Position numbers and translations under genes: made by a program
Shown: positions 2,097-63,665 of the stretch, piece by piece
How positions within the stretch are numbered: the first letter of the stretch is position 1
Layout of the letters: each line of letters opens with the position of its first letter
Notes under the pieces: model-generated
The model's input: only the letters and a program-made list of their open reading frames with translations
Told to the model about the DNA's origin: nothing
Database searches by the model: none
Assembly: GCA_043807085.1 (NCBI GenBank)
Contig: JAZDGI010000005.1
Coordinates: forward strand, 5,816-69,815
Source of the DNA: a bacterium
GTDB lineage: Bacteria > Patescibacteriota > Minisyncoccia > Minisyncoccales > JAZDGI01
Direction: 5' to 3'
Length of the DNA: 64,000 nt

Positions 2097-3260
2097 ATGA
2101 AAATTATTATTCTGCAGGAAAAATTAAAACAAGGACTTAATCTCGTAGAGAGAATGGCGTCAAAACTTACAACTCTGCCGATTTTAAATAACATTTTGCT
2201 GAAAACAGAAAAAAACTTTCTTAATATTGCGGCCACCGATCTTGAGGTTGGCATAAACTGGTGGGTCTTAGCTAAAACCGAGGAAGAAGGCTCTTTGGTT
2301 TTACCATCGCAAACAATATCCAGCCTGATTAATTTTTTACCTAACAAGCCCTTAAGTATTAACTCAAAAGGGCTGATCGCCAACTTGGAATGCGAGAATT
2401 ATAAGTCAACCGTGAAAAGCCTTGACCCAAACGAATTTCCCGCTATACCCGTTCTTTCTGACGGCGAGAGCTTGGAGCTTCCGGCCGGCCTCCTGTGTGA
2501 AGGACTTAGCCGCGTGGCCGGCATTGCCGCCCCCTCAACAACTAGGCCGGAAATCTCCGGAGTGTATTTTATTTTTCAAAAAGGCATGGTTAAAATGGTG
2601 GCTACCGACAGCTTTAGGCTGGGAGAAAAAACTATTATTAATAAAAAAGACGGAGAAGTAGGCAAGGATCGCTCTTTCATTTTGCCCCAAAAGGCGGCTC
2701 GCGAAGTTATTAATATCTTTGGCCAGAGAGAAGGGGATGTGAAAATTTATTTTTCGCCAAATCAGGTAATGTTTGAGGCCTCAATGGCCGAAACCAAGCA
2801 TCCGCAAGTCCAGCTTGTTTCTCGTTTGATTGAGGGAGAGTTCCCTGACTATCAAGAGATAATTCCCCAGACATACACGAGCAGGGTAGCTGTTTTAAAA
2901 AAGGAGCTTTTAAATCAGGTTAAGGCTGCCGGCTTGTTCAGCGGCCGGACCAACGAGATAAAGTTAAAAATAAATCCAAAAACAAAAGGCGAGGGTGAGG
3001 TTGAAATTATGAGCCAAAGCCAAGATCTCGGAGAGTACCGCGGCCTGATTCGGTCCGAAGTAAAAGGCAAGGGGCTAGAGATTTCTTTTAATCATCGCTT
3101 TCTGCTGGAAGGGTTGTCCAGCCAGTCTTCCGATCAGGCGAAAGACGGAAAAAACGAAGAAATTATTTTTGAATTAACCGGCGAGGATGGGCCAGCTATT
3201 TTAAAGACGGACCAGGAACCGGGCTTTGTTTATGTTTTAATGCCGATTAAAAAAGGCTAA
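2097..3260 (+). CDS. dnaN: DNA polymerase III beta sliding clamp
   Basis: 387 aa. Typical N-terminus (MKIIILQEKLKQGLNLVERMAS...PILNNILLKTE), three-domain length, directly downstream of dnaA. Confidence 0.95.
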   Translation: MKIIILQEKLKQGLNLVERMASKLTTLPILNNILLKTEKNFLNIAATDLEVGINWWVLAKTEEEGSLVLPSQTISSLINFLPNKPLSINSKGLIANLECENYKSTVKSLDPNEFPAIPVLSDGESLELPAGLLCEGLSRVAGIAAPSTTRPEISGVYFIFQKGMVKMVATDSFRLGEKTIINKKDGEVGKDRSFILPQKAAREVINIFGQREGDVKIYFSPNQVMFEASMAETKHPQVQLVSRLIEGEFPDYQEIIPQTYTSRVAVLKKELLNQVKAAGLFSGRTNEIKLKINPKTKGEGEVEIMSQSQDLGEYRGLIRSEVKGKGLEISFNHRFLLEGLSSQSSDQAKDGKNEEIIFELTGEDGPAILKTDQEPGFVYVLMPIKKG

Positions 3261-3268
3261 CTTATTAG

Positions 3269-4261
3269 ATGCGGCAGTTAAGGTTTTTATTTTTATTTCT
3301 CGCCGCCGCCATTTTAATGGCGGCCTTTGATTTTGTTTTTGTCTTATTCTCTTTGCCGCAAGTCGCAGATGTTTTACCCTTAGACGGAGAGCGGAACGTT
3401 TCAGAGAGAGCTGTGATTACCATACGTTTTAACAAGCCGGTTTCCAGGCAAGAGCTGAAGCATTTAATTTTTCCCGAAACTTACGGCGAGTGGAAATTTA
3501 CAGACCCTTTGATTAAAAATCATTTATTCAAAACATTAACTTTCATTCCGGCAGAAAAATTCAGTCCGGGAACGCAGTTTTTTGTAAGATTAGAAAATAT
3601 CAGAGGGTTCGGACTTGGCGCGGAAAACTTTTTTGCTTTTTCTTTTAGGACTGCGCCGGACAAAGAGGCTCTGGCAAAGAGGGTCACCTTGCTTGAAACC
3701 CCCTTGGATTGGCAAGATCATAAGCTGTCTTGCGAGGCGGCCTCTTTAAAAATGGCGCTTTGCGGGAAAGGGATAAGGGTTTCCGAGGAAGAAATAATGG
3801 CAGAAATAGGCGTTGACACGACCTCCAGGCAGGGAAAGGTCTGGGGGGACCCTTATGAAAAATTTGTCGGGGAGATTGATGGCAGAATTTGTCAAACAGG
3901 CTATGGGGCTTATTGGCCGGCAGTAGCCCGGGCGGCTCTTAAGTGGAGGGAAAGCGAAAGTTTCACGAATTGGAATTTGGAAAATTTAATTAACGAGATT
4001 GAGCAGAAAAATCCAGTTGTCGTTTGGGGGGTACTCCCTGATAAGCCATTGACTGATTGTTCTTGGTATACGAGAGAGGGAAAATATGTAAAAGCTTTTA
4101 GAGAGGCGCACGTCAGATTGCTGATAGGGTTTGTCGGGCCGGCAGATTCCCCTTCTCAAATTATTTTGAACGATCCTTTGGCTGGCCAGCTTTACTGGTC
4201 AACCGCTGACTTTCTTAAGAATTGGAGCGCGTTTAATAACAGCGGAGTGGCGGTCAGGTAG
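3269..4261 (+). CDS. Membrane-anchored protein with an Ig-like domain and a C39-like (YvpB-type) cysteine peptidase domain
   Basis: 330 aa. N-terminal TM helix and a Big_5/SbsA-like segment (RAVITIRFNKPV). The C-terminal half has a candidate Cys nucleophile (KLSCEAASLKMAL) and His (REAHVRLLIGF), as in peptidase_C39_2 proteins. Confidence 0.6.
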   Translation: MRQLRFLFLFLAAAILMAAFDFVFVLFSLPQVADVLPLDGERNVSERAVITIRFNKPVSRQELKHLIFPETYGEWKFTDPLIKNHLFKTLTFIPAEKFSPGTQFFVRLENIRGFGLGAENFFAFSFRTAPDKEALAKRVTLLETPLDWQDHKLSCEAASLKMALCGKGIRVSEEEIMAEIGVDTTSRQGKVWGDPYEKFVGEIDGRICQTGYGAYWPAVARAALKWRESESFTNWNLENLINEIEQKNPVVVWGVLPDKPLTDCSWYTREGKYVKAFREAHVRLLIGFVGPADSPSQIILNDPLAGQLYWSTADFLKNWSAFNNSGVAVR

Positions 4262-7832: not shown

Positions 7833-9077
7833 TTGAGATGGATGTATATTAAAAGAATGAAGAGAAATACCGATCCTAAAAAAATAGAAGAAGCAGTATC
7901 CTCTCGTTTTATCGAAAGAATCTATCCATCAAAAAAGGCTCTAGAAGATTTTTTGAAATCAGGCAGAAGAATGGATATTTACATTGGTTTTGATCCTACA
8001 GGGCCAGAGCTTCATTTAGGACATTCTACAAATTTTTTGCTTCTTAAAAAATTTCAAGAATTAGGGCACAAAGTTATTCTTCTCGTCGGCGATTTTACTG
8101 CTCGGATTGGCGACCCAACGGGAAAGTCAATTACCAGGAGAGCTTTAACGAAAGAGCAGGTTTTAGAAAATTGCAAAACCTACGAAAACCAAGCGAGTAA
8201 AATCTTAGATTTTAATTCTAATGCCAACCCTGTTGTAATAAAATTTAACAGCCAGTGGCTGAGCAAACTAACGCTAGAAGACGTTATTAAATTAACTGCC
8301 CATTTTACAGTTAACCAAATGATCCAAAGAGATATGTTTCAACAGAGGATAGAAGAAAAGAAGGAAATTTATATAAATGAGTTTTTGTATCCTATGTTGC
8401 AAGGATATGATTCAGCAACACTTGGTGTGGATATTGAGGTTGGCGGTACAGACCAAACCTTTAACATGTTAGTAGGGCGAGACCTTGTCAGGATTTATAA
8501 AAATAAAGAAAAATTCGTTATTACAACTCCCTTGTTAATTAATCCCAAAACCGGCAAAAAATTGATGTCAAAAAGTGAAGGAGGTTATATCGCCCTGAAC
8601 GATTCTCCTCAAGAAATGTATGGGAAAGTGATGGCTTTACCCGATGAAGTAATTATCTCTTGCTTGCAATTATGCACAGAGATGCCATTGGTAGAGATTC
8701 AAGTGATGGAAAAAAATCTAAAACAAAAGCAATGTAATCCCCGCGATTTAAAAATAAAATTGGCCAAGGAAATCGTTAGTATCTATCATGGTCAAAAATT
8801 TGCGCTTTTAGCGGAAAAAGAGTTTGAAAAAGTTTTTAAAGACAAAGAGCTGCCGACAGAAATTCCGGGAGTTTTTGTGCGGGAAAAAACCCTAAACATC
8901 CTTGACTTGTTGGTTAAAACAAAGCTAGCCGCTTCCAAGTCCGAAGCCAAAAGGCTGGTTTTGCAAAAAGGAGTTAGGGTGGATGGAGCTGTTTTAGACG
9001 ACTGGAAAGCGGTTGTAGCGATAAAAAAAGACTTGGTGGCGCAAGTCGGCAAAAGAAAAGTCGTTAAGGTTATTTAA
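7833..9077 (+). CDS. tyrS: Tyrosine--tRNA ligase
   Basis: Class I motifs HLGH and KMSKS-like (KLMSKS), with a C-terminal S4 domain (SKSEAKRLVLQKGVRVDG). The track start is TTG at 7833; in-frame ATGs at 7842 and 7857 are alternative starts. Confidence 0.95.
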   Translation: MRWMYIKRMKRNTDPKKIEEAVSSRFIERIYPSKKALEDFLKSGRRMDIYIGFDPTGPELHLGHSTNFLLLKKFQELGHKVILLVGDFTARIGDPTGKSITRRALTKEQVLENCKTYENQASKILDFNSNANPVVIKFNSQWLSKLTLEDVIKLTAHFTVNQMIQRDMFQQRIEEKKEIYINEFLYPMLQGYDSATLGVDIEVGGTDQTFNMLVGRDLVRIYKNKEKFVITTPLLINPKTGKKLMSKSEGGYIALNDSPQEMYGKVMALPDEVIISCLQLCTEMPLVEIQVMEKNLKQKQCNPRDLKIKLAKEIVSIYHGQKFALLAEKEFEKVFKDKELPTEIPGVFVREKTLNILDLLVKTKLAASKSEAKRLVLQKGVRVDGAVLDDWKAVVAIKKDLVAQVGKRKVVKVI

Positions 9078-9572: not shown

Positions 9573-10313
9573 TTATATTTTCAAATTAGAGTAAATATTT
9601 TGAACGCTTTCTAACTCGTCTAGCGCGCCAAATAATTTTTGACATGATTCTTTTGCTCTTTTCTCGGCGTCAATTTCTTCTTTTGGCACCCACTCCAGAG
9701 AAGAGTCCTCGCTCTTGATTCCTTTTTCTTCCAGCCCTTTTCTTGTTTTTTCCAATTCTTCCGGCTTGGTGTAGATCTCTAAAATATCATTGCGCCAAAC
9801 AACGTCCTGCGCCCCTGCCTCAATCGCTGACATCTCTAATTCTTCGCGGGACTTCATTTGTGGATCGGGGGCTGGCGGCTGGGAATTTATCGTTATTACT
9901 CCCTTTCTTTCAAACATCCACTTGACCGCTCCTTCGGCAACTAATTTCCCCCCGTACTGGTTTAGAGTCTGCTTTATTTCTCCGAGAGCGCGGTTTTTAT
10001 TGTCGGTTATCCCCTCAATAATTATCGCTATTCCCTCGGGGCCGTAAGCCTCAAACAGAATTTCTTCCAAGCCCTCTTCTTCTTGGCCTCCTTCGGCTCT
10101 TTTAATTGCCCTTTCCACGTTTTCTTTGGGCATATTAAAATTTTTAGCTTGTTCTATGGCCATTCTTAATTTATAATTGCTTTCCGTGCTGGCTCCTCCC
10201 TCTTTGACCGCCACTGAAATAACGCGGGCCATTTTTGAAAAAATTTGGCCGCGTTTTTGATCGGTAATCTCTTTTTGGTGTTTAATTGTCTTTGCGTGGC
10301 TGTGGCCGCTCAT
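9573..10313 (-). CDS. yebC: YebC/PmpR family DNA-binding regulator
   Basis: Family N-terminus MSGHSHAKTIKHQK begins at the ATG at 10313. The 26-codon extension in the track is rejected. That ATG forms an ATGA overlap with the comEA stop. Confidence 0.9.
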   Translation of the reverse strand: MSGHSHAKTIKHQKEITDQKRGQIFSKMARVISVAVKEGGASTESNYKLRMAIEQAKNFNMPKENVERAIKRAEGGQEEEGLEEILFEAYGPEGIAIIIEGITDNKNRALGEIKQTLNQYGGKLVAEGAVKWMFERKGVITINSQPPAPDPQMKSREELEMSAIEAGAQDVVWRNDILEIYTKPEELEKTRKGLEEKGIKSEDSSLEWVPKEEIDAEKRAKESCQKLFGALDELESVQNIYSNLKI

Positions 10314-10732
10314 ATTTTTACTTTTCTTTTTAAGAGTAGGATACCAAATCCTGAGAAAATAGCAACGGCTATGGCTGTGGACAAGACCCAAAAGAATCCC
10401 GAAGGATTAGGCGGTTGTTCTTTTGGCTGTTCTTTGAGTTGTTCTTTCTGCTCTTGCTCGAAAAGTTCGGCAGGCAGAGCTTTTTCAACCCAGGCCAATC
10501 CTTGTTTTTTAATATCCTCAACTCTTAATTTGCTGATGCCTTTTATTCTAACCAGGTCTTCCAAGGAAGAAAACGGCCTTAAAGAAACCAATTCCAGGCC
10601 TCGAGCCTCTCCTATATGGACAATTTTGATTAGATCGCTCAGAGGAGCGGTATTAATGTCTATTTTTTCTGCGGCGAACACTCCGCGCCAGGCAAAGAAG
10701 AGGAGAAGGACCACTCTTGACAAAAGCTTCAT
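10310..10732 (-). CDS. comEA: ComEA-like helix-hairpin-helix DNA-binding protein
   Basis: 140 aa. Signal/TM at the N-terminus, HhH repeats (INTAPLSDLIKIVHIGEARGLELV...LEDLVRIKGISKLRVEDI), C-terminal TM helix. Confidence 0.8.
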   Translation of the reverse strand: MKLLSRVVLLLFFAWRGVFAAEKIDINTAPLSDLIKIVHIGEARGLELVSLRPFSSLEDLVRIKGISKLRVEDIKKQGLAWVEKALPAELFEQEQKEQLKEQPKEQPPNPSGFFWVLSTAIAVAIFSGFGILLLKRKVKI

Positions 10733-15601: not shown

Positions 15602-16378
15602 ATGCCCGAATTGCCGGAGGTTGAGACGATACGGCGTCAATTGGCCCGGAAAATTATCGGCAAAAAATTAAACGGCCTGCCGGCCGGCAGGCAAGGCTGG
15701 AAAATTATCGGCGTGCGGAGAAGGGCCAAGCTTTTAATAATTGATTTTGTCGGCGGGCAAAACCTTATTTTTCATCTAAAACTGACCGGTCAGCTGATCT
15801 TTAACGGAAAACCTTCGGCGCATACCCGCAAGGTTTTTAATTTTGGCGACGGCTCGCGGCTAATTTTTAATGACGCCCGGAAGTTCGGCTGGTGGAAAAA
15901 AACGAAAGGAACGGAAAAGATAGAAGATAAATTCGGGCCGGAGGCCTTGGAAATTAGCCTTGATGACTTCAAAAGAGATTTATCCCGAAAACCGAATGCC
16001 AAAATCAAACCTCTCTTGATGGACCAAAAATTTATTGCCGGCATCGGCAATATTTATTCAGATGAAATTTTATTTGCCGCTAGAGTTAATCCCTTGCGCC
16101 GGGTAAAATCCTTGGAGGTTAAAGAGGTTGGGCGAATTCATCAAAGTATCAAAAAAATTTTAGTAGAGGCGATCAAGTGCGGAGGTTCGTCGGTTGAATA
16201 TTATCTTGACGCTTGCGGCAAGAAGGGGGACTATGTTAAGTATCATAAAGTTTATCAAAGGGAAGGCAAAAAATGCTTTCGCTGCGGCGCGAGCATAGAA
16301 AGATTAAAAATCAGCGGCAGATCCGCTCGCTTCTGCCCCAAGTGCCAGCCTTTCGGCACGGCTCAGGGCAAGAAATAA
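15602..16378 (+). CDS. mutM: Formamidopyrimidine-DNA glycosylase
   Basis: N-terminal MPELPEVE, H2TH region, C-terminal zinc finger (CFRCG...CPKC). It carries a 51-nt in-frame insertion (see the repeat at 15648..15712). Confidence 0.92.
   Translation: MPELPEVETIRRQLARKIIGKKLNGLPAGRQGWKIIGVRRRAKLLIIDFVGGQNLIFHLKLTGQLIFNGKPSAHTRKVFNFGDGSRLIFNDARKFGWWKKTKGTEKIEDKFGPEALEISLDDFKRDLSRKPNAKIKPLLMDQKFIAGIGNIYSDEILFAARVNPLRRVKSLEVKEVGRIHQSIKKILVEAIKCGGSSVEYYLDACGKKGDYVKYHKVYQREGKKCFRCGASIERLKISGRSARFCPKCQPFGTAQGKK
15648..15712 (+). repeat. GC-rich palindromic micro-element flanked by a perfect 14-bp direct repeat, in frame in mutM
   Basis: GGAAAATTATCGGC occurs at 15648..15661 and again at 15699..15712. 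Between them lies the perfect 18-nt palindrome GCCTGCCGGCCGGCAGGC at 15675..15692. The repeat period is 51 nt = 17 codons (KIIG[KKLNGLPAGRQGWKIIG]). Confidence 0.9.
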
Positions 16379-37250: not shown

Positions 37251-38978
37251 ATGAAGAACCAAGATTTGGCGAAAATATTTTATGGAATAGCGGATTATTT
37301 GGAGATGGATAGGGTGGCTTTTAAGCCCTTTGCCTGGCGAAAAGTTGCCGTTGTTTTGGAGGCAATGAAAGAAGACGTCGGAGAGGTTTACAAAAAAGGA
37401 GGAAGGAAGGCTTTGGAGGAAATTCCGGGGGTTGGGAAAAGCATTGCTGAAAACATAGAAGAATATCTGAAAACAGGCAAGGTCAAATATTATGAAAGAT
37501 TTAAAAAAAGCCTGCCGATAAATTTACCGGAGATGATTGCGGTTGAGGGGTTAGGCCCTAAAAAAGCCAAGGTTCTTTATGAAAGATTGGGAGTGAAAGA
37601 TTTAAAAACATTGGAAAAGGCGGCTAGGGCCCATAAAATCGCTTCTTTATTCGGATTTGGAGAGAAAACTGAAAAGAATATTTTAGAGGGGATTAACTTT
37701 TTGAAAAGAAGCAAGGGGAGATTTTTGCTGGGAGAAATTCTGCCCAAAGCCGGCGAGGTTTTGGAAAAGCTAAGAAGCTTGAAAGAATCGGAAAAGGTGG
37801 ATATGGCCGGTTCTTTGCGGAGAAAGAAAGAAACTATTGGCGATGTTGATTTTCTGGCTATTTCCAGGAAGCCCAAGCCGATAATGGATTTTTTTGTTTC
37901 TTTGCCCGGAGTTGTCAGAGTCTGGGGCAAGGGTTTGACAAAAACGTCGGTAAGAACGGAAGAAGGCTTTGATATGGATATCAGGGTAGTGCCCAAAAGA
38001 AGTTATGGTTCAGCTCTTCAGTATTTTACAGGGTCTGTGGATCATAATATTGCCACGAGAAAAATTGCCATGGACAAGGGACTGAAGCTTTCTGAATACG
38101 GGCTTTTTAAGGGCTCAAAAATGATTGCCGGCGCTAGCGAAGAGGAGATTTATAAAGCTTTGGGCATGGAATGGATTGAGCCGGAAATAAGGGAAAATCA
38201 GGGTGAAATCGCCGTCGCCCAAAACAATCAACTCCCGAAGCTGATTAATTATAAAGATATTAGGGGTGATTTGCACTGCCATTCCGATTGGGCCGGCGGA
38301 AAAAATTCTATTGAAGATCTGTCAGGAGCCGCTCAAAAAATAGGCTATGAATATCTGGGCATAGCCGACCATACAAAGTTTTTGAGGATTGAACACGGGC
38401 TGGATGAAAGAAAATTAGAATTGAGAAATAAGGAAATTGACAAAATAAACGAAAAATTTAAGGTTCAAGGTTCAAGGTTCAAGATATTGAAGGGTTGCGA
38501 GGCGAATATTTTGAACGACGGCTCAATTGATATTAAGGATGATGCCTTGGCGAAGTTAGATTTTGTTATCGCCGGTATTCACTCCTCTTTCAAAATGGCG
38601 AAAGAAAGAATAACAGAAAGAATAATAAGGGCGATGAGAAATCCCAATGTAGATATTATTTCTCATCCGACAGGTCGAATCTTGAAAAAAAGGGATGAAT
38701 ATCAGATTGATTTCAGCAAAATTTTAAGAATCGCCAAGGAAACCGAGACTATTCTGGAGATAAATTCTTATCCTGAAAGATTAGATTTAAACGACCAGAA
38801 TATCAGGCGAGCCAAAGTCGCGGGAGTAAAAATGATTATTAATACCGACGCTCACCGGAAGGATCAGCTGGTACTTATGGAATTGGGCGTTTCCCAGGCC
38901 CGTCGCGGCTGGGCCGAGAAGGAAAACATAATAAATTGCCGGCCATTAGATAAACTATTAAAATTTTTTAAGAAATAA
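37251..38978 (+). CDS. Family X DNA polymerase with C-terminal PHP domain (PolX)
   Basis: The start is set to ATG 37251 (MKNQDLAKIFYGIADYLEM). HhH motifs, catalytic GDVDFL and PHP motifs (GDLHCHSDW, ADHT, NTDAH). The track's TTG at 37212 lies inside repeat copy 2. Confidence 0.92.
   Translation: MKNQDLAKIFYGIADYLEMDRVAFKPFAWRKVAVVLEAMKEDVGEVYKKGGRKALEEIPGVGKSIAENIEEYLKTGKVKYYERFKKSLPINLPEMIAVEGLGPKKAKVLYERLGVKDLKTLEKAARAHKIASLFGFGEKTEKNILEGINFLKRSKGRFLLGEILPKAGEVLEKLRSLKESEKVDMAGSLRRKKETIGDVDFLAISRKPKPIMDFFVSLPGVVRVWGKGLTKTSVRTEEGFDMDIRVVPKRSYGSALQYFTGSVDHNIATRKIAMDKGLKLSEYGLFKGSKMIAGASEEEIYKALGMEWIEPEIRENQGEIAVAQNNQLPKLINYKDIRGDLHCHSDWAGGKNSIEDLSGAAQKIGYEYLGIADHTKFLRIEHGLDERKLELRNKEIDKINEKFKVQGSRFKILKGCEANILNDGSIDIKDDALAKLDFVIAGIHSSFKMAKERITERIIRAMRNPNVDIISHPTGRILKKRDEYQIDFSKILRIAKETETILEINSYPERLDLNDQNIRRAKVAGVKMIINTDAHRKDQLVLMELGVSQARRGWAEKENIINCRPLDKLLKFFKK
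38460..38483 (+). repeat. Heptanucleotide tandem repeat (AAGGTTC x3 + AAG) in frame in PolX
   Basis: Three perfect 7-nt units (21 nt = 7 codons) encode KVQGSRF(K) between PHP motifs. Confidence 0.95.
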
Positions 38979-44594: not shown

Positions 44595-47500
44595 ATGGAT
44601 GTAAACTTTCCGGAGCTTGAGGAGAAAATTTTAAAATTCTGGCGGGAAAACCTGATTTTTAAAAAATCAATTTCACGGCGCAAAAAGAGCCGCAATTTTG
44701 TGTTTTACGAGGGCCCGCCCACGGCCAACGGAAAGCCTGGAATCCATCATGTTTTGACCAGGGTTTTTAAAGACATTATCTGCCGCTATAAAACTATGCG
44801 GGGTTTTAGAGTTGAGAGAAAGGCCGGCTGGGACACTCACGGCTTGCCGGTAGAGCTGGAAGTTGAAAAAAAATTAGGGTTGAAAAATAAAAAAGACATT
44901 GAAAAATACGGCATAGCTAAATTTAATAAAAATTGCCAAGAATCGGTTTGGCAATATAAAAAAGAATGGGAGAAATTAACCGACAGGATTGGTTTTTGGC
45001 TTGACGAGGACAATCCGTACGTCACCTATCAAACGGAATACATTGAAACCGTTTGGCATATTTTGAAGCGGATTTACCAAAAAGGCCTGCTTTATCATGA
45101 TTACAAGGTGGTTCCTTATTGCCCAAGGTGTGGAACTACCTTATCCAGCCACGAGGTTGCCCAAGGATACGAAAAGATCAAAGATCCTTCTATTTTCGTC
45201 AAATTCAGGATTAAAAATCCGGAATTCAAAGATTCTTATTTGCTGATTTGGACCACTACTCCCTGGACGTTGCCAGGCAACGTGGCGATTGCCGTTAATC
45301 CCGAGATGGCTTATGCCAAAATCAAATCGCCAGATATAGAAGAGTATTTAATTTTAGCTAAAGACAAAATAGCCGAACGGCAAATAAAAGGAAAAATAGT
45401 CCAAGAATTTAAGGGAAAGGATTTAGCCGGATTGGCTTACGAGCCAGCGTACGCTGACGAGGATTTTTCTAAAAGCGCCTACAGAGTCATTTTGGCTGAT
45501 TTTGTTTCTTTGGAAAGCGGCACTGGTTTAGTTCATATTGCCCCGGGTTTTGGATTGGAAGATATGGAAGCTGTAAAAAATCAAAACACAGAATCAAAAA
45601 GGCAGGGTCTGCCCGAACTCCCAATTTTATTGCCAGTGAACGAAGAAGGGAAATTCGCGCTTGACGCCAAGAAGTGGGCCGGAATGTTTGTCAAAGAAGC
45701 GGACCCTTTGATTATTAACGATCTGAAAGAAAGGGGTTTTTTGTTCGCTGAAGAATTATACGAACACGATTACCCTTTTTGCTGGCGCTGTCATTCTCCG
45801 CTGCTTTATTACGCCAGAAAATCTTGGTTTATTCAGACGACCAAAATTAAGGACGATCTTATTGGGAATAATCAAAAAATAAATTGGGTTCCGGTTCATT
45901 TGAAAGAAGGAAGATTCGGCGAGTGGTTAAGAGATTTGAAAGACTGGGCTTTGACCAGAGAAAGATATTGGGGAACTCCCCTGCCTATTTGGCAATGCAA
46001 GACCTGCGGAAAGCAGGAAATTATCGGCTCTAGAAAAGAACTATTCGGCCGAGCTTCTTCGGGCAGCAGATATTTTATTTTCCGCCACGGGTATTCTTTA
46101 AGGCAGATTAAAAAGGTATCTTCCTGCTGGCCGGAAAAAGTACCATTTCCCTTGACGAAAAAAGGAGAGAGGGAGGTTGAGGTCGCGGCGAAAAAACTAA
46201 AAAATAAAAAAATTGACTTAATTTTTTCCTCCGACCTGTTGAGAGCGAAGCAAACCGCCCGAATTATCGCCAAAGAAACCGGAGCCAAAATAATTATCGC
46301 CAAGCAATTGAGGGATTATAACGTGGGAGTTTTTAACTATAAAAATCCGAAATTATCTTGGGAATATTTGGAGAAAAGCGAAAATCCGATTTTAACGAAA
46401 TTGCCCAAGGGAGAGAGTCTGGCAAATATCAGAAAAAGAATGTACGAATTTTTAAAAAGAGTAAATGAAAAATACCCGGCAAAAAACATTGTTATCGTGT
46501 CTCACGAGCTCCCTTTGACGATTTTAGAGCAGACCTTAAGCGGCTTGGAATTAGAAGAAATATTGAAACAAAGGGCGCAGCGGAAAATAAATCCAATCGC
46601 TACGGCCGAATGGCGGGAGATAAAGTTTAAAACCCTTCCCTTTAACGGCAATTACGAAATAGATCTCCACCGCCCTTATATTGACGAAATGAAATTTCAG
46701 TGTCTGGGTTGTCAGGGTGAGATGGAAAGGGTTTCTGAAGTTATAGATTGCTGGTTTGATTCGGGCTCTATGCCCTTTGCCCAGGCGCGCTGGCCGTTCA
46801 GCGGAAACTTGAAGCCTGAACCCTCTGGCGCGAAACCTCCGAAACTGTTCCCGGCAGATTATATTGCCGAAGGGGTTGATCAGACGAGAGGCTGGTTTTA
46901 CACCCTATTGGCGATCTCCACGCTTTTAGGATTTGGTTCTCCCTACAAGAATGTCATTTCCTTGGGCCATATTTTAGATGAAAAGGGAGAAAAAATGTCA
47001 AAATCGAAAGGTAATATTGTTGATCCGTGGTATATTGCCGGCCGGTACGGGGCAGACGCCGCCCGTTGGTATTTTTATACCGTCAACCAGCCCGGCGAAG
47101 CGAAATTGTTTTCAGAGAAAGATATTGACCAGGCATTAAAAAGATTTATTTTGATATTTTGGAATTGTTTTACCTTCTGGGAAACATACAAAAAAAATTC
47201 AAAAGTCAAAAGCCAAAAGACAAAACCAAAGAATGTTTTAGATAGGTGGATTATTTCCAGGCTGAACCGGCTGGTTTTAGAAGCGACCGAATCTTTGGAC
47301 AGATTTGATGTGACAGGCGCGGCTAGAATTATTGAAAATTTTGTAATCAACGATTTGTCTTTGTGGTATATTAGAAGATCCAGAAAGCGGTTCAAAGAGA
47401 TTGAGAATTTTTTAGCCCTTATTCTTTTGGCTGTATGCAAACTTGGCGCGCCCTTCTTTCCTTTTTTGAGCGAAGAAATATACCAAAAAATTTCCGGTTG

Positions 47501-48065
47501 CCGATTTTCAGCTTCCAAATCAGTGCATTTGGAAAAGTGGCCGATAGCGGATAAAAAATTAATTGATAAAAAACTGGAGGGAAGCATGAACGAGGTTCGC
47601 GAGATAGTCAATTTAGGATTGAGAGAAAGGGCGAAGTCGGGCATTAAGGTCAGGCAGCCTCTCGGTAAATTACAAATTACAAATTGCAAATTACAAAAAG
47701 AGGAAGAACTTCTGGGGCTAATAAGAGAAGAGGTTAATGTTAAGGAAATTACTTTCGGCGAGTCTTTAAGGCTAGATACGGAAATAACCGAAGAACTTGA
47801 AAGGGAAGGAATTGTTCGGGAAGTTGTTCGTCAGATTCAGGGAATGAGAAAAGAGGCAAAATTGCGGCCGAAAGATAAAATTTCAGTGAGCTATTTAGCC
47901 GAAGGCGAATTGGGCGAAATTTTGGAAAAAAGTAAAAGTTTGATGCTGGAGGAGGCGAATATAAGCGATTTAGTCCGACGAAGAGAGATTTCGGGGGAGT
48001 TTCTCGCTCAAAAAGAAATAAAGGTCGGCGATGAAAAATTATGGCTGGGAATTAAGAAAATTTAA
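44595..48065 (+). CDS. ileS: Isoleucine--tRNA ligase with an inserted histidine-phosphatase (PGAM-like) domain
   Basis: 1156 aa. HIGH-type motif (GKPGIHHV), CP1 editing domain, KMSKS. Residues ~487-685 (nt ~46053..46655) form an extra domain with RHG, LTKKGE, SSDLLRAKQTA and SHE motifs. Confidence 0.95.
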   Translation: MDVNFPELEEKILKFWRENLIFKKSISRRKKSRNFVFYEGPPTANGKPGIHHVLTRVFKDIICRYKTMRGFRVERKAGWDTHGLPVELEVEKKLGLKNKKDIEKYGIAKFNKNCQESVWQYKKEWEKLTDRIGFWLDEDNPYVTYQTEYIETVWHILKRIYQKGLLYHDYKVVPYCPRCGTTLSSHEVAQGYEKIKDPSIFVKFRIKNPEFKDSYLLIWTTTPWTLPGNVAIAVNPEMAYAKIKSPDIEEYLILAKDKIAERQIKGKIVQEFKGKDLAGLAYEPAYADEDFSKSAYRVILADFVSLESGTGLVHIAPGFGLEDMEAVKNQNTESKRQGLPELPILLPVNEEGKFALDAKKWAGMFVKEADPLIINDLKERGFLFAEELYEHDYPFCWRCHSPLLYYARKSWFIQTTKIKDDLIGNNQKINWVPVHLKEGRFGEWLRDLKDWALTRERYWGTPLPIWQCKTCGKQEIIGSRKELFGRASSGSRYFIFRHGYSLRQIKKVSSCWPEKVPFPLTKKGEREVEVAAKKLKNKKIDLIFSSDLLRAKQTARIIAKETGAKIIIAKQLRDYNVGVFNYKNPKLSWEYLEKSENPILTKLPKGESLANIRKRMYEFLKRVNEKYPAKNIVIVSHELPLTILEQTLSGLELEEILKQRAQRKINPIATAEWREIKFKTLPFNGNYEIDLHRPYIDEMKFQCLGCQGEMERVSEVIDCWFDSGSMPFAQARWPFSGNLKPEPSGAKPPKLFPADYIAEGVDQTRGWFYTLLAISTLLGFGSPYKNVISLGHILDEKGEKMSKSKGNIVDPWYIAGRYGADAARWYFYTVNQPGEAKLFSEKDIDQALKRFILIFWNCFTFWETYKKNSKVKSQKTKPKNVLDRWIISRLNRLVLEATESLDRFDVTGAARIIENFVINDLSLWYIRRSRKRFKEIENFLALILLAVCKLGAPFFPFLSEEIYQKISGCRFSASKSVHLEKWPIADKKLIDKKLEGSMNEVREIVNLGLRERAKSGIKVRQPLGKLQITNCKLQKEEELLGLIREEVNVKEITFGESLRLDTEITEELEREGIVREVVRQIQGMRKEAKLRPKDKISVSYLAEGELGEILEKSKSLMLEEANISDLVRRREISGEFLAQKEIKVGDEKLWLGIKKI
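47199..47226 (+). repeat. Heptanucleotide-periodic repeat in ileS (TCAAAAG TCAAAAG CCAAAAG ACAAAAC)
   Basis: Four 7-nt units read through as SKVKSQKTKP. Confidence 0.8.
47667..47694 (+). repeat. Heptanucleotide tandem repeat in ileS (AAATTAC x2, AAATTGC, AAATTAC)
   Basis: Four 7-nt units with one substitution encode KLQITNCKLQ. Confidence 0.95.
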
Positions 48066-55374: not shown

Positions 55375-56826
55375 ATGTCAACCAAGACAACCAAGAAAAA
55401 AACATTTTATATTACCACCAGCATTCCCTATGTTAACGCGCCGCCGCACATAGGTTTTGCCCAGGAACTGATCCAGGCGGATGTTTTGGCCCGCTATCAC
55501 CGCGGCTTGAGCGAAGACGTTTTCTTTCTGACCGGTACCGACGAGAACGGCTTAAAAAACGCGCTGGCGGCTGAAAAAGCAGGGAAGACTCCCCAAGAAT
55601 TTGTTGATGAAATATCAGAAAAATTTAGGCTTTTGACAAAAAGTTTGAACCTATCAAACGACGATTTTATCAGAACTAGCGACAAAAAGAGGCATTGGCC
55701 AGCCGCTCAAAAAGTTTGGTCTCTGCTAAAAGAGAGCGGGGATATTTACAAAAAGAAATACAGGGGCCTTTATTGCGTCGGCTGTGAAGCTTTTATCAAA
55801 GAAAAAGACCTTGTTAACGGACAATGTCCGGTTCATCTGAAAAAGCCAGAAGTTTTAGGGGAAGAGAATTATTTTTTCCGGCTGTCAAAATACGCAGCTT
55901 TAGTAGAAAAGGAAATCAGAGAAAATAAGATAAAAATCGTCCCGGAATCCAAAAAAAATGAAATTTTGAATTTTATAAGTCAGGGAGTTGAAGATGTCAG
56001 CTGCTCCCGCTCAAAAGAGAAGTTAAAATGGGGAGTGCCGGTTCCAGGCGACCAAAACCAGATAATTTATATCTGGCTGGAGGCGCTTTCAAATTATATT
56101 TCTGCTTTAAATTACGCTTCAAACGGAGACAAATTTAAAAAATTCTGGCCGGCCGATATTCATTGCATGGGAAAAGATATTTTCCGTTTTCACGCCTTGC
56201 TCTGGCCAGCGGTGCTTGTGTCTATTAAATTGCCTTTGCCCAAGACAATTTTTGTACGCGGATTTATGACTTCCGGCGGTCAAAAAATGTCAAAGTCATT
56301 AGGCAATGTTGTTGATCCTTTTGAACTGGTAAAGAAATATGGGACAGACGCTGTTCGCTATTTTCTTTTGCGGGAAATTCCAGCGACAGAGGATGGAGAT
56401 TTTACTATTGAAAAATTTGAACAGAGATATAATAGCGATTTGGCAAGTGGTTTAGGGAATTTAGTAGCCAGAGTAATAACGATGGCTAAAAATCCGAAAT
56501 CCGAAATCCGAAGCACGAAACAAATTCAAAATTTTAAATTCCAGACAACAATAAATAAAACTAAGAAAGATTACGAAAAATCCTTAGAAGAGTTTAGGTT
56601 TAATGAGGCGTTGATTGCGATTTGGGAGTTGATTAGTTTTTGCGACGAATATATTGAAAAAGAAAAGCCGTGGGAGGGAGGAAAAAATGATGTTATTAGC
56701 GGTTTGTTATTCGTCATTAGCCAGCTAGCAGAATTATTAGAGCCATTTTTGCCTGAAACCGCGGAAAAAATAACTAAACAGCTTAAAATCCAAAAAAGCG
56801 AACTATTATTCCCCCGTTTAAAATGA
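55375..56826 (+). CDS. metG: Methionine--tRNA ligase
   Basis: 483 aa. TSIPYVNAPPHIGF (HIGH-type), zinc knuckle CVGCEAF...CPVH, KMSKS. Confidence 0.95.
   Translation: MSTKTTKKKTFYITTSIPYVNAPPHIGFAQELIQADVLARYHRGLSEDVFFLTGTDENGLKNALAAEKAGKTPQEFVDEISEKFRLLTKSLNLSNDDFIRTSDKKRHWPAAQKVWSLLKESGDIYKKKYRGLYCVGCEAFIKEKDLVNGQCPVHLKKPEVLGEENYFFRLSKYAALVEKEIRENKIKIVPESKKNEILNFISQGVEDVSCSRSKEKLKWGVPVPGDQNQIIYIWLEALSNYISALNYASNGDKFKKFWPADIHCMGKDIFRFHALLWPAVLVSIKLPLPKTIFVRGFMTSGGQKMSKSLGNVVDPFELVKKYGTDAVRYFLLREIPATEDGDFTIEKFEQRYNSDLASGLGNLVARVITMAKNPKSEIRSTKQIQNFKFQTTINKTKKDYEKSLEEFRFNEALIAIWELISFCDEYIEKEKPWEGGKNDVISGLLFVISQLAELLEPFLPETAEKITKQLKIQKSELLFPRLK
56490..56517 (+). repeat. Heptanucleotide tandem repeat in metG (AAATCCG x3 + AAGCACG)
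   Basis: Three perfect units and one degenerate unit encode (K)NPKSEIRST. A further 7-nt-periodic tail (AAACAAA TTCAAAA TTTTAAA) follows. Confidence 0.95.
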
Positions 56827-60152: not shown

Positions 60153-61969
60153 TAGGCTATATTGGCAAAAAAAACGCCGTTCCGATTCTAATGGAAGGGC
60201 TAAAAAGAGAAAGCTACCGAGGGTATGATTCCAGCGGCATTGTTGTGTTTGGAAACGGTAAGCCAGTCTGTATAAAGGCGGTTGGGAAACTGGAAAATCT
60301 TGAAGAGAAATTAAGCGATAACAGCCCGCAAGGAACTTTAGGATTGGGCCATGTCCGCTGGGCGACCCATGGCGGCGTAACCGAGGAAAACGCTCATCCG
60401 CATCACGACTGCAAAAATAATATCTGGCTGGTTCACAACGGCATTATTGAGAATTACAAAGAGCTGAAGAAAAAACTGGAAGAAAAAGGGCATAAATTTG
60501 TTTCTCAAACAGATACAGAGGTTATCGTCCATTTAGCTGAAGAATTTTTTAAAGGAAATTTGGAAGAAGCCATCAAAAAAACCACAGCTTTTTTAAGGGG
60601 CACTTATGGAATAGCCGCGATTTCCCGTGATGATCCTGACAAGATTGTTGTCGCCCGATTGAGCAGTCCTCTGGTAATCGGCTGGGGGGATAATGAGTAT
60701 ATGGTAGCCTCTGATCCGGCGGCTGTAATCGGCCATACTAGAACCATAACTTATCTATATGATAACGAAATAGCGACGATTACTTTGGCTGGCGGTCCTA
60801 AAATCTGGACGATAATAAAGGAGCCGATAGAAAAAAGAAAAGAAAATATAGGCTGGACCGTGGAGGAGGCTCAAAAAGGCGGCTATGCCCATTTTATGCT
60901 TAAAGAAATAATGGAAGAGCCCGAGGCAATTGAGAATGCGATGAGAGGCAGATTGGTGCCCGAGGATGGCCAGGTGAGATTGGGCGGGTTAAGTTCTGTT
61001 GGGGTTAAACTAAGAGAGATTGATAAGCTAATTTTAATTGCCTGCGGCACAGCAGCTCACGCCGCTAGAACTGGCGAATACATGCTGGAAGAATACGCTG
61101 GTATTCCGACTGAAGTTGATGTTGGCTCAGAATTCAGGTATCGAAAGCCCGTTTTGGATAAGCAGACGGCTGTTATTTGCATTTCTCAATCAGGCGAAAC
61201 AGCCGACACTTTAGCCGCTTTGCGGGAAATGAAGCAAAAAGGAATTTTGGCCTTGGGAGTTACCAATGTGGTCGGCTCAACTCAAGCCAGAGAAACTGAT
61301 GCCGGAGTTTATACCCGGTCAGGGCCCGAGATGGCTGTCGCATCAACCAAAGCTTTTATTGGCCAATTGACAACTTTGGCTATGTTAACAGTTTATTTAG
61401 GCCGGCAAAGGGATATGGCTTTGGTCATGGGCAAAAGAATTGTTGTCGAGCTTTCGAAGCTGCCTGAATTAGCCCGGCAAGTTTTGAAACAAGCGTCGGA
61501 AATAGAAAAAATTGCAAAAAAATATAAAGACTTCAAAAATTTTTATTTTATTGGCCGAAAGTATAATCATCCGGCAGCGCGCGAAGGCGCTCATAAATTC
61601 AAAGAAGTCACTTATCTTCACGCCGAAGGAGTCAGGGCGGGAGAACTGAAGCATTGCGAGCTGGCCCTAATTGACGAAAGTTTCCCAACTGTGGCCATTT
61701 GCCCTTCGGACTCGGTCTATGAAAAAATGATTTCCAATATCCAGGAAATAAAGGCCCGTAAGGGACCAGTTATCGCTATTGCCACTGAAGGCAACGAAGA
61801 GATTAAAAATTTGGTTGATGACGTCATTTATATCCCCAAAACCTTGGAAATGCTGACGCCGATTCTGTCAGTCATTCCCCTGCATCTCCTCGCTTATTAC
61901 GTGGCCAAAGAATTAGGTTACGACATTGATAAACCCAAAAATTTGGCCAAAAGCGTAACTGTTGAGTAA
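60140..61969 (+). CDS. glmS: Glutamine--fructose-6-phosphate aminotransferase
   Basis: 609 aa. N-terminal MCGIVGY, two SIS domains, C-terminal KSVTVE. Confidence 0.98.
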   Translation: MCGIVGYIGKKNAVPILMEGLKRESYRGYDSSGIVVFGNGKPVCIKAVGKLENLEEKLSDNSPQGTLGLGHVRWATHGGVTEENAHPHHDCKNNIWLVHNGIIENYKELKKKLEEKGHKFVSQTDTEVIVHLAEEFFKGNLEEAIKKTTAFLRGTYGIAAISRDDPDKIVVARLSSPLVIGWGDNEYMVASDPAAVIGHTRTITYLYDNEIATITLAGGPKIWTIIKEPIEKRKENIGWTVEEAQKGGYAHFMLKEIMEEPEAIENAMRGRLVPEDGQVRLGGLSSVGVKLREIDKLILIACGTAAHAARTGEYMLEEYAGIPTEVDVGSEFRYRKPVLDKQTAVICISQSGETADTLAALREMKQKGILALGVTNVVGSTQARETDAGVYTRSGPEMAVASTKAFIGQLTTLAMLTVYLGRQRDMALVMGKRIVVELSKLPELARQVLKQASEIEKIAKKYKDFKNFYFIGRKYNHPAAREGAHKFKEVTYLHAEGVRAGELKHCELALIDESFPTVAICPSDSVYEKMISNIQEIKARKGPVIAIATEGNEEIKNLVDDVIYIPKTLEMLTPILSVIPLHLLAYYVAKELGYDIDKPKNLAKSVTVE

Positions 61970-63665
61970 ATTTATGATTAAAGACAGCAACAAAATATTT
62001 TTGCTTGGAAATGAGGCGATAGTGCGCGGGGCTTTAGCCTCGGGCGTTGATTTTGTGGCAACGTATCCAGGGACGCCTTCTTCGGAAATCGGCAACATCT
62101 TCAATAAAATTGCCAAAGAAAACGGCGTTTATTTTGAATTTTCCACTAACGAAAAGGCGGCTTTGGAGGCTGGAATAGGAGCTTCGTTTTCTGGATTGAA
62201 AACAATGGTGGCGATGAAAAATTTCGGCCTTAACGTTTGCCTGGATTCTTTAATTCCGTTTGTTTATACTGGCAGCAAAGGAGCGACCGTTATCGTCGTG
62301 GCTGACGATCCTTCCTGTCACAGCTCGGCCCAGTCAGAAGAAAATACAAGGCCGATAGCTGATTTGGCCCATATCCCGATTCTAGAGCCGGCCGATCCGC
62401 AGGAATGTTTTGATTTTGTGAAGCTCGGCTTTGAAATTTCCGAAAAGTTTAGCCTTCCGATTTTGATCAGGACGACAACAAGAGTGGCGCATCAAAGCGC
62501 TCAAGTAAGTTTGGGCGAAATCCGAAATCCAAAACCCCTGCCTGGCCGGCAGGCAGGCGAAATCCAAAATGGCAGGTTTGTTAGAGATCAAAAAAGGTTC
62601 GTGACGATGCCGCCGCGGGTTTTGGAGATGAAAAAAGAGCTTTTGGAAAAAATAGAAAAAATCCGGCTTTTCGCTGAGCAAAACACAAAAAACAAGACAC
62701 AAAATACGAAAATAGGTATAATTACCTCCGGAGTTTCTTATTTATATGTCATGGAGGCGTTAAAGGAACTCAATTTAAATTTGCCGGCTTTGAAGCTTGA
62801 TTTTTTCTATCCTTTGCCGGAAAAGAAAATTAAAAGTTTCATTAAGAATTTTAAAAAGGTCTTAATCGTTGAGGAATTGGAGCCGTTTTTGGAAAAAGAA
62901 ATTGAAAGATTGGCAAAAGAAGCTAATTGCCGGCTTGAAATTCACGGCAAAGATTTATTGCCAATCGTCGGCGAGCTCAAACCAGAAATCGTTGAAGTCG
63001 CTATCGCCAAACTCGTCGGCAGAAAATTAGAAATTAGAAATTCGAAATTAGAAATTTCGCAGATTAAGCATCTGCCGAGGTTTTGCCCGGGATGCCCATA
63101 TCATATGGTTTTTGCAGCGATAAAAAAAGCTACTCCTTTGGATGCGATTTTTGGCGGCGACATCGGCTGTTATATGCTGGGAGCGATTCCGCCTCAAGGG
63201 CTTTACGATTACCTTTCTTCAATGGGGTCATCTATCGGCATTGGGCATGGAGTTTCCAAGGCAACCAACCAGAAGGTGATTACTTTTATCGGGGACTCAA
63301 CTTTTTTCCATGCCGGAATTCCCGCTTTATTGAATGCGGTTTTTAATAAATCAAATCCTTTGATTATTATTTTAGATAACGGCACAACGGCCATGACCGG
63401 CCATCAGCCGAATCCGGGCACAGCCGTGAAAAAAGATTCTAAATACGAATTTGAATGGAAAGGCTATGGACAAAACTCACTGGCGTCAGAAAAGCCATTA
63501 TCCATTGAGGAAATTGTTAAGGCCTGCGGCGTTAAAAATTTAAAAGTCGTTAATTCTTTCAATCTAAGCGAAGTGGAAGCTGCCGTGAAAGAATTTTTGC
63601 CGAGAGCAGAAGTTTCAGTAATAATCGCCCGGGGAATCTGCGCCTTGCTCGCCAAAAAATTATGA
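61962..63665 (+). CDS. iorA: Indolepyruvate:ferredoxin oxidoreductase alpha subunit-like (TPP enzyme)
   Basis: 567 aa. LLGNEAIVRGALASGVDFVATYPGTPSSEI, a CPGCPY motif and a TPP-binding GDSTFFHAG. It contains several micro-repeats. Confidence 0.85.
   Translation: MSKFMIKDSNKIFLLGNEAIVRGALASGVDFVATYPGTPSSEIGNIFNKIAKENGVYFEFSTNEKAALEAGIGASFSGLKTMVAMKNFGLNVCLDSLIPFVYTGSKGATVIVVADDPSCHSSAQSEENTRPIADLAHIPILEPADPQECFDFVKLGFEISEKFSLPILIRTTTRVAHQSAQVSLGEIRNPKPLPGRQAGEIQNGRFVRDQKRFVTMPPRVLEMKKELLEKIEKIRLFAEQNTKNKTQNTKIGIITSGVSYLYVMEALKELNLNLPALKLDFFYPLPEKKIKSFIKNFKKVLIVEELEPFLEKEIERLAKEANCRLEIHGKDLLPIVGELKPEIVEVAIAKLVGRKLEIRNSKLEISQIKHLPRFCPGCPYHMVFAAIKKATPLDAIFGGDIGCYMLGAIPPQGLYDYLSSMGSSIGIGHGVSKATNQKVITFIGDSTFFHAGIPALLNAVFNKSNPLIIILDNGTTAMTGHQPNPGTAVKKDSKYEFEWKGYGQNSLASEKPLSIEEIVKACGVKNLKVVNSFNLSEVEAAVKEFLPRAEVSVIIARGICALLAKKL
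62517..62569 (+). repeat. Composite: GAAATCC heptamers plus a GC-rich palindrome flanked by an 11-nt direct repeat, in frame in iorA
   Basis: GAAATCC occurs at 62517, 62524 and 62559. The hairpin is CCTGCCTG-GCCGG-CAGGCAGG at 62537..62557. GAAATCCAAAA occurs at 62524..62534 and again at 62559..62569. The segment encodes EIRNPKPLPGRQAGEIQN. Confidence 0.9.
62679..62713 (+). repeat. Degenerate heptanucleotide-periodic tract in iorA
   Basis: CAAAACA CAAAAAA CAAGACA CAAAATA CGAAAAT encodes (E)QNTKNKTQNTKI. Confidence 0.7.
63024..63051 (+). repeat. Heptanucleotide tandem repeat in iorA (AAATTAG x2, AAATTCG, AAATTAG)
   Basis: Encodes KLEIRNSKLE. The one variant unit (TCG in place of TAG) removes what would otherwise be an in-frame stop codon. 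Confidence 0.95.

Follow-up and report, generated by a model that had tools for sequence, protein, structure and literature searches.

A GC-rich micro-palindrome in the heptamer-coded linker of an IorA-like protein, probably one copy of a dispersed family

The gene iorA (61962–63665, forward strand) of the 64-kb window, i.e. the whole stretch of DNA analyzed here, carries a 21-nt GC-rich palindrome (CCTGCCTGGCCGGCAGGCAGG) at 62537–62557, in the middle of a tandem array of heptamers. Very probably, this palindrome is an inserted copy of a dispersed family of micro-elements, which entered a native heptamer array without target duplication. The reference sequence for the family is a 20-nt perfect palindrome, CCTGCCTGCCGGCAGGCAGG, which we named P20; the iorA copy is P20 with one additional central G. 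A second copy is found in another gene of the window, mutM.

The palindrome in iorA and its native array

The open reading frame (ORF) of iorA is intact and encodes the 567-residue alpha subunit of an indolepyruvate/2-oxoacid:ferredoxin oxidoreductase, with POR_N and TPP_enzyme_C domains. This IorA-like protein is 100% identical to a protein from an NCBI metagenome-assembled genome (MAG), the host being a Patescibacteria-like MAG, and shares 62–75% identity with the IorA-type proteins of Patescibacteria, including Nealsonbacteria and Paceibacteria. The array consists, in order, of GAAATCC (62517–62523), GAAATCC (62524–62530), AAAACCC (62531–62537), CTGCCTGGCCGGCAGGCAGG, C (62558), GAAATCC (62559–62565), and AAAATGG (62566–62572). 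Its upstream part (GAAATCC GAAATCC AAAACC, 62517–62536, forward strand) encodes EIRNPK of the inter-domain linker, and its downstream part (C GAAATCC AAAATGG, 62558–62572, forward strand) falls in phase with it once 62537–62557 is removed. The palindrome itself, an unstranded feature, is made of two abutted 10-nt arms only, with a total size of 20–21 nt and no internal segment between terminal inverted repeats. It can form a hairpin with 8-bp arms and a 5-nt loop, whose folding energy as single-stranded DNA is −8.9 kcal/mol (z = −2.6). The palindrome encodes (P)LPGRQAG in frame, and the region reads EIRNPK-PLPGRQAG-EIQNGRF, the IorA peptide stretch spanning the insert being NPKPLPGRQAGEIQ. No Rfam family matches this site. 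An earlier sequence-only reading had described this layout, the hairpin arms with their coordinates, and an 11-nt repeat on either side of the hairpin, all of which are present upon direct reading.

The same reading had proposed that the palindrome was inserted into a pre-existing array, and comparison with orthologues bears this out. At the equivalent place, the IorA orthologue L287 reads GGC GAAATCC GAAATCC GAAATCC GAAATCC GAAAG TTC, i.e. an uninterrupted (GAAATCC)4 array. Deleting exactly 62537–62557 from the window yields GAAATCC GAAATCC AAAACCC GAAATCC AAAATGG, a perfect five-unit array in which the frame is kept and a 13-residue linker is encoded. This is a usual size, because the linker (from the conserved HQ...L to F-V-x-D/N) has 10–14 residues in 107 of the 119 parsed orthologues, as opposed to 20 here. 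Heptamer-coded linkers are frequent among these orthologues (EIRNPKSEIRK, EIQNPKSKIQK, KIQNSKSKIQKGK), and LPGRQAG is present in none of the 119 others.

The 11-nt sequence GAAATCCAAAA on both sides of the palindrome (62524–62534 and 62559–62569, forward strand) had been interpreted as a target duplication. [quoted passage not shown] We find this scenario scarcely credible. The starts of the two GAAATCCAAAA copies are separated by 35 nt, which is not a multiple of 3, so that loss of a 35-nt element plus duplication would frameshift iorA, whereas loss of 21 nt keeps the frame and restores both the array phase and a normal linker length; the 11-nt repeat is thus array periodicity. More precisely, it appears to be the output of two GAAATCC-AAAAyyy double units, and such a repeat is expected from this 14-nt sub-period of the heptamer array, which L287 possesses without the element. 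In mutM, the flanking repeat GGAAAATTATCGGC encodes a native KIIG...KIIG. Insert-free MutM orthologues, which read RKIIGK(K/R)LN-GRKIIGVRRRAK, keep this pair, and both GGAAAATTATCGGC copies are therefore native. Furthermore, the flanking direct repeats of 104 P20 copies in low-GC contigs have lengths that match those at random sites, with no sign of target duplication, and filled/empty pairs on the phage contig L133 (see below) represent an exact 20-nt insertion.

In an AlphaFold2 model, IorA residues 184–218 are coil and the pLDDT is ~53 over residues 191–200, around the insert. The insertion site is thus predicted to be permissive, within a disordered inter-domain linker forming a coil that joins domain I to the next domain. 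We envisage that a small GC-rich palindromic element was added to an array already encoding this linker, and that the copy may have survived because it is 21 nt long and in frame, is free of stop codons in all six frames, and would lie in a disordered linker at the protein surface.

A second copy in mutM and a dispersed family

Only the iorA and mutM loci lie within five mismatches of CCTGCCTGCCGGCAGGCAGG in the 64 kb, as compared with a mean of 0.04 in composition-preserving shuffles. The mutM copy (CCTGCCGGCCGGCAGGCAAG, 15676–15695, unstranded) lies in the gene encoding formamidopyrimidine-DNA glycosylase, Fpg/MutM (15602–16378, forward strand). It matches P20 at 18/20 positions, with both substitutions synonymous, and corresponds to a net insertion of 21 nt encoding GLPAGRQ. 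As previously pointed out in the sequence-only reading, the iorA hairpin and the mutM palindrome (15675–15692, GCCTGCCGGCCGGCAGGC) share CCTGCC and GGCCGGCAGGCA, and both genes encode an LP(A)GRQ(A)G peptide (PLPGRQAG in the IorA-like ORF and GLPAGRQG in the Fpg/MutM ORF). The identical mutM site contains a perfect P20 in the orthologue L081 and is empty in L001, which was the one close relative recovered by our scan for MutM relatives (the motifs used, MPELPEVE and GNIYSDEI, are universal, and matches were mostly distant Fpg genes). An insert of 7–8 residues occurs at this site in 11 of 120 MutM orthologues, with the variants GLPAGRQ, GLPAGKQ, GLPDGRQ, GPPAGEA, GPPVGEA, and VPPVSRQ, which we read as decaying forms of one DNA. 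Since these variants are visibly decaying, the mutM copy is old, and the mutM palindrome is, judging from its sequence, an older and partly decayed copy of the same element as that in iorA. Separately, the C-terminal tail PFGTAQGKK of this MutM (CCTTTCGGCACGGCTCAGGGCAAG, 16350–16378) is absent from most orthologues; the tails PIRQAQGKKP and PFNAAQGKQS in a few orthologues parallel it, which suggests that another GC-rich insert may be read through at the gene end.

P20 is not confined to this window. Perfect P20 was found in IMG/VR as 42 copies in 35 stretches, whereas an arm-swapped palindrome of identical composition (GGCAGGCAGGCCTGCCTGCC), used as a control, was found 0 times. Metagenomes scanned for P20 and for the 21-nt variants of its center revealed at least 120 loci, most of which, among the matches listed, are in contigs of 29–50% GC, many of them from groundwater. 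P20 is an 85% GC word, for which chance predicts the opposite of such a concentration in low-GC contigs. It is letter-identical across contigs of 29–72% GC, and the iorA-type 21-mer was found identical in five unrelated contigs (L089, L125, L130, L153, and L256). Full-length P20 was found neither in 2.3 Gb of cultured phages nor in 7.3 Gb of plasmids. Approximately 24 of the 79 matches of a looser viral pattern were discarded as representing one homologous GC-rich phage gene (peptide ...DLPDRQAGKK...) rather than independent elements; the copies of this gene (L106, L155, L157, L159, and ~20 related viral loci) share CCTGCCTG(A/T/G)CCGGCAGGCA. These loci, which would inflate naive counts, were left out, and our counts are based on perfect copies of the 20-mer and on contigs of low GC content. 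The hairpin micro-element family initially proposed from the iorA and mutM copies is thus dispersed and more general than originally thought. Of the two outcomes named beforehand as contrary to it, neither was observed: P20 copies elsewhere number in the hundreds, and IorA orthologues bearing the same residues without palindromic DNA number 0/119.

These data also bear on where the palindromes come from. They might have arisen locally and independently at each site, by a template switch or fold-back copying a nearby GGCAGG (Gly-Arg) in inverted orientation. Indeed, a native GGCAGG is found 14 nt downstream in iorA (62571–62576), N-G-R flanks the mutM site in orthologues, and the insert in the IorA orthologue L087 ends with an inverted copy of its own 5′ flank. 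Against this, an identical 20-mer recurs in over 160 unrelated contexts, whose flanks are likewise unrelated and do not systematically contain the half-site, and there are 42 copies versus 0 for the control, making a local de novo origin highly improbable. Even less credence can be given to a sequencing or assembly artefact, e.g. an adaptor or linker palindrome. Although an artefact would produce an identical sequence in very different contigs and datasets, the insert at the mutM site is present in independent assemblies (NCBI, ENA, and Logan) with evolutionary divergence and synonymous changes, changes in gene length are always a multiple of 3 with the domains intact on both sides, copies are depleted from ORFs, and P20 matches no sequence in the searched literature.

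Both window copies and at least 10 others are inside intact Pfam domains. In low-GC contigs, P20 is found in frame within such domains in PurH, SecA, LigA, a P-type ATPase, PheS, AtpA, CheB, a histidine kinase, UvrC, and a GH115 hydrolase. All six frames of P20 are free of stop codons, with PACRQA, LPAGRQ, or CLPAGR read on both strands, and all three reading frames are used in genes. The net change in gene length is always a multiple of 3, and is achieved by the 21-nt center variant in iorA, by P20 plus 1 nt in mutM and AtpA, and by a gain of 18 nt in PheS. For PheS, a filled site in L176 (at 5257) can be compared to an empty one in L288 (87% identity), while the orthologue L289 (P0256, ~501–1556) contains at the L176 junction a decayed copy, CTGCCTGCC-GAAAGAAAAG, encoding YLPAERK. 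Its left arm CTGCCTGCC is kept and its right arm GAAAGAAAAG displays G/C to A changes at five positions, a pattern that we read as AT-biased erosion of an old insert. Only 12–18% of P20 copies are deep in ORFs versus 39% of random sites, a ~3-fold depletion, and selection evidently eliminates the majority of insertions in genes. The 21-nt variant shows no significant excess in genes over the 20-nt one (3/17 vs 9/74, p = 0.69).

The fate of these copies makes it very unlikely that the palindrome is a selected functional motif, whether a protein-binding, terminator, or mRNA-structure signal, or an LPGRQAG peptide module kept or convergent in IorA and MutM. T-runs do follow some intergenic copies (L205, L257, and L276), so individual copies may act as terminators, and the MutM insert is kept at its site in those 11 orthologues. 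However, the insert is absent from the 119 IorA orthologues, copies are depleted from genes, and those in MutM and PheS decay freely (PPAGEA, PPVSRQ, and YLPAERK) with AT-biased loss of one arm, while three reading frames are all used and no Rfam family matches.

Insertion sites and candidate machinery

The physical link between the hairpin and heptamer arrays, which had been suggested from the window alone, is real and general. Flanks that are 7-periodic across the junction are found in 14/113 metagenomic P20 copies versus 24/4800 sites drawn at random from those contigs, which gives an odds ratio of 28 (p = 3e-14). Enrichment on this scale is limited to lag 7, lag 8 being much weaker (2.7% vs 0.3%), and the viral P20 set agrees with it. 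In 7 of the 9 copies with strongly periodic flanks, exact deletion of 20 nt restores the heptamer phase, and the copy in UvrC (L201) splits a heptamer-coded loop as in iorA. The heptamer units around P20 copies are unrelated in sequence (GGTGAAA, TCTCGTC, AAAGATC, etc.), and the target is array structure, not sequence. The flank signal is limited to a depletion of T at −1 and of A at +1.

Heptamer arrays are also the commonest class of tandem repeats in the window, accounting for 13 of 45 TRF rows. Further arrays are at 38460–38483, 47194–47225, 47667–47697, 56490–56512, 62679–62712, and 63024–63056. The array at 56490, whose unit is GAAATCC as in iorA, encodes NPKSEIR within the ORF 55375–56826, a putative methionyl-tRNA synthetase. 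The one at 63024–63056 (AAATTAG units) encodes KLEIRNSKLEIS in a second IorA linker, which in many orthologues is heptamer-coded with different units, e.g. TKYKIQNTKYKIQ.

P20 is enriched 3–6-fold in the loops of larger hairpins. One case is a hairpin repeat family on the phage contig L133 (GGGTGCCCCATCCTTG-CGGTTTTTG-CAAGGGTGGGTC), in which four members have an empty loop (545–595, 2499–2549, 4198–4248, and 9926–9976) and two hold exactly P20 (8967–9046 and 10383–10470). The filled members read ...CGGTTTTTG-P20-CGAGGGTGG, i.e. 20 nt have been gained and nothing duplicated. Further family members are at 1146–1193, 2990–3037, 8892–8946, and 10498–10552. The loops of these hairpins, which resemble repetitive extragenic palindromic (REP) sequences, contain a plain 9-mer, P20, or a 14-nt palindrome (TCCGCCGCGGCGGA), resulting in nested palindromes.

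Transfer RNA genes provide a third kind of site. In L137 (2239–2330), the long variable arm of a tRNA-Met is made up of P20, and ARAGORN still calls this tRNA; other copies are in D-loops (GTAGCTCA..GGTA-P20-GAGC; L250 at 664 and 839, L259 at 23, and L156 at 515), and one is in a T-loop (L207 at 336). Small GIY-YIG (URI-type) ORFs adjoin P20-bearing tRNA genes in several low-GC contigs (L156 ~550–820, L223, L225, L250, and L274). The tRNA in L156 is apparently interrupted in its anticodon loop by such an ORF, and another lies next to the insert-bearing mutM in L083 (71–340). The adjacency of GIY-YIG ORFs and P20-bearing tRNA genes may be coincidental, such ORFs being common in these genomes, and no GIY-YIG homologue was found in the window.

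P20 is accompanied by other GC-rich micro-elements. A second widespread family, GCCTTCGCCAAGGCTNCGGCGG, with the approximate consensus (T)CCGCCTTCGCCAAGGCT(A/T)CGGCGG(A/G)CA(A/G)G, is found in 26 IMG/VR stretches. A decayed copy (L086, 8562–8640, IorA orthologue P0020, peptide RLRQGSDRQA) splits the same IorA array, there made of AAAATCC units. Another copy, in L301, is within a heptamer array with TACTCGA / GATGCTC units, and more are found at L133 3035, L013, L207, and L290–L313. A third motif, CCTTCGNNNTCGCTCGGG, i.e. CCTTCG-NNN-TCGCTC(G/A)GGG, was found in L082 (~598, MutM P0128, GPSTSLGA), L087 (~4150, IorA P0080, PPSLSLG), and L032 (10978). In other lineages, it takes up the very sites that hold the inserts in MutM and IorA. 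Judging from these sequences, several families of elements seem to hit the permissive sites.

That P20 is a micro-element mobilized or inserted in trans is well supported. By which enzymes is another matter, and any specific enzymology is doubtful. A trans-acting machinery might recognize extruded or single-stranded DNA, such as slipped heptamer arrays and hairpin or cruciform loops, with junctions sometimes off by 1–3 nt, in which case only in-frame outcomes would persist in genes. Candidates would be a single-strand transposase of the HUH/Y1 type or the repair-mediated capture of a self-complementary oligonucleotide. An HUH/Y1-like enzyme would fit because of the hairpin and the absence of target duplication. 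In the case of repair capture, the molecule joined at breaks in fragile non-B DNA, e.g. heptamer arrays and hairpin tips, would be a self-annealed 20-bp duplex with blunt ends or else a hairpin oligonucleotide, possibly from a phage-borne source. The absence of target duplication, the irrelevance of orientation for a palindrome, the copies at hairpin tips, and the many copies on viral contigs all agree with this, as do the gene junctions, which differ from gene to gene (a gain of 21 nt for both mutM and AtpA, of 18 nt for PheS, and the 21-nt center variant for iorA) as is typical of end joining. We nevertheless judge repair capture unlikely, because no source of such an oligonucleotide is known and because base-exact insertion in 7/9 periodic contexts and in L133 is cleaner than typical end joining.

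Several observations weigh against insertion of a mobile element as set out here. No mobilizing enzyme was found among the clustered neighbors of 110 low-GC loci or in the window. When the 5,399 ORFs of 199 P20 loci were clustered all against all, no recurrent mobilizing candidate emerged; only a related GC-rich phage gene set, the small GIY-YIG ORFs (4–5 loci), and integrases (4 loci) were recovered, and Pfam identified only an SU10 adaptor and a lysozyme on the phage contig L133. There is no conserved tetranucleotide flanking 167 P20 copies, nor any conserved target base beyond the T/A depletion; for an HUH/Y1-like transposase, this means that there is neither a fixed target motif nor an enzyme found. 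A 20-mer that is letter-perfect over contigs of such different GC content is hard to reconcile with a passive repeat that spreads in the ordinary way, be it vertically or horizontally. The window contains only two copies of the family, no relative of this genome with more than 75% IorA identity was found by which the iorA insertion might be dated, and the neighbor-joining tree of MutM is star-like with the 11 insert-bearing orthologues scattered, which is compatible with one gain plus losses as well as with repeated gains.

With these points in mind, we tentatively put forward a broader possibility. P20 might be the most abundant member, with GCCTTCGCCAAGGCTNCGGCGG as another family, of an undescribed class of 20–30-nt "loop-invading" GC palindromes, shared letter-for-letter across bacterial phyla and viruses. 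A horizontally spreading machinery would place these palindromes at heptamer arrays, hairpin tips, and tRNA-gene loops, where the DNA would be extruded and single-stranded, and they would continually seed inserts of 6–7 residues in essential proteins of streamlined uncultivated bacteria. Heptamer arrays may themselves be products or preferred substrates of this machinery.

P20 among known small repeats

Should our reading of P20 as an inserted copy of a dispersed family hold, no smaller class of apparently mobile DNA would so far have been seen within essential genes, and its identity across very different genomes would be unusual. The 20-mer would offer a concrete handle for finding the machinery by phylogenetic profiling, and would show how conserved enzyme loops gain residues. 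It would account for a peptide, LPAGRQ/PACRQA/CLPAGR, that recurs among proteins of uncultivated bacteria and is otherwise taken as native by annotators and structure predictors, and it would flag tRNA genes whose D, variable, or T loop holds a hairpin of 20 nt. It would also link, in a testable manner, heptamer tandem arrays and micro-palindromes, both of which are poorly understood. P20 belongs to a known kind, the very small dispersed palindromic repeats, within which it is apparently an undescribed cross-lineage element; a search for the P20 string and for the peptides LPAGRQ, PACRQA, and CLPAGR gave no match within the searchable literature.

MITEs and other IS-derived elements are ~50–500 bp long, have terminal inverted repeats around an internal segment, and generate a target-site duplication. 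In contrast, P20 is 20–21 nt with no internal segment and no target duplication. IS200/IS605 elements have two different subterminal hairpins, encode a TnpA, and need a specific 4–5-nt target on the 5′ side of the insertion, the known Y1 transposases using a defined 4–5-nt target. P20 shares with them a hairpin, the absence of target duplication and, as we infer, insertion into single-stranded DNA, but no pair of subterminal hairpins, fixed 5′ target of 4–5 nt, or TnpA was found for it. The GC clusters of yeast mitochondria are lineage-specific, usually 30–60 nt long, and often flanked by AT-rich duplications. Organelle GC clusters and P20 are alike in being short GC-rich palindromes dispersed in AT-rich DNA, sometimes nested and occasionally in frame, although P20 comes from bacteria or viruses and lacks a duplication.

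REPs and REPINs are extragenic, imperfect, and species-specific, and co-occur with a RAYT gene (TnpA-REP, HUH Y1). Like P20, they are GC-rich multi-copy palindromes of 20–40 nt, for which a single-strand hairpin is the likely substrate, and with Y1 enzymes no target duplication would be expected. REPs carry a conserved GTAG or CGTC tag (PMC3733652). P20 has no such tag and, unlike REPs, is perfect, shared across very different genomes, and present inside Pfam domains. A RAYT gene was found neither among the recurrent neighbor families of P20 loci nor among the L133 ORFs, all of which come from genome fragments.

Rickettsia palindromic elements (RPEs) are ~150 bp long, form ten families found in Rickettsia only, and occur in frame in conserved genes (PMC10969869). 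RPEs and P20 are both palindromic and in frame in unrelated conserved genes, to which they add a peptide at tolerated surface sites. They differ in that P20 is 20–21 nt long (7 residues) and found across phyla.

The closest system is that of the small dispersed repeats (SDRs) of cyanobacteria related to Nostoc punctiforme, in which Elhai et al. reportedly described SDR1–8, 21–27 nt in length. Some SDRs are reportedly hairpins sitting in tandem heptamer repeats. Later papers state that SDR5 inserts precisely between nucleotides 3 and 4 of the HIP1 palindrome and report SDRs only in Nostocaceae. SDRs are reported as mainly intergenic and only from Nostocaceae, whereas P20 is a perfect palindrome found in frame in housekeeping genes and in Patescibacteria-like, other low-GC, high-GC, and viral contigs. 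On the other hand, both are dispersed repeats of 21–27 nt whose mobility is judged from sites with and without the element, and both enter short, defined sequence contexts with precision.

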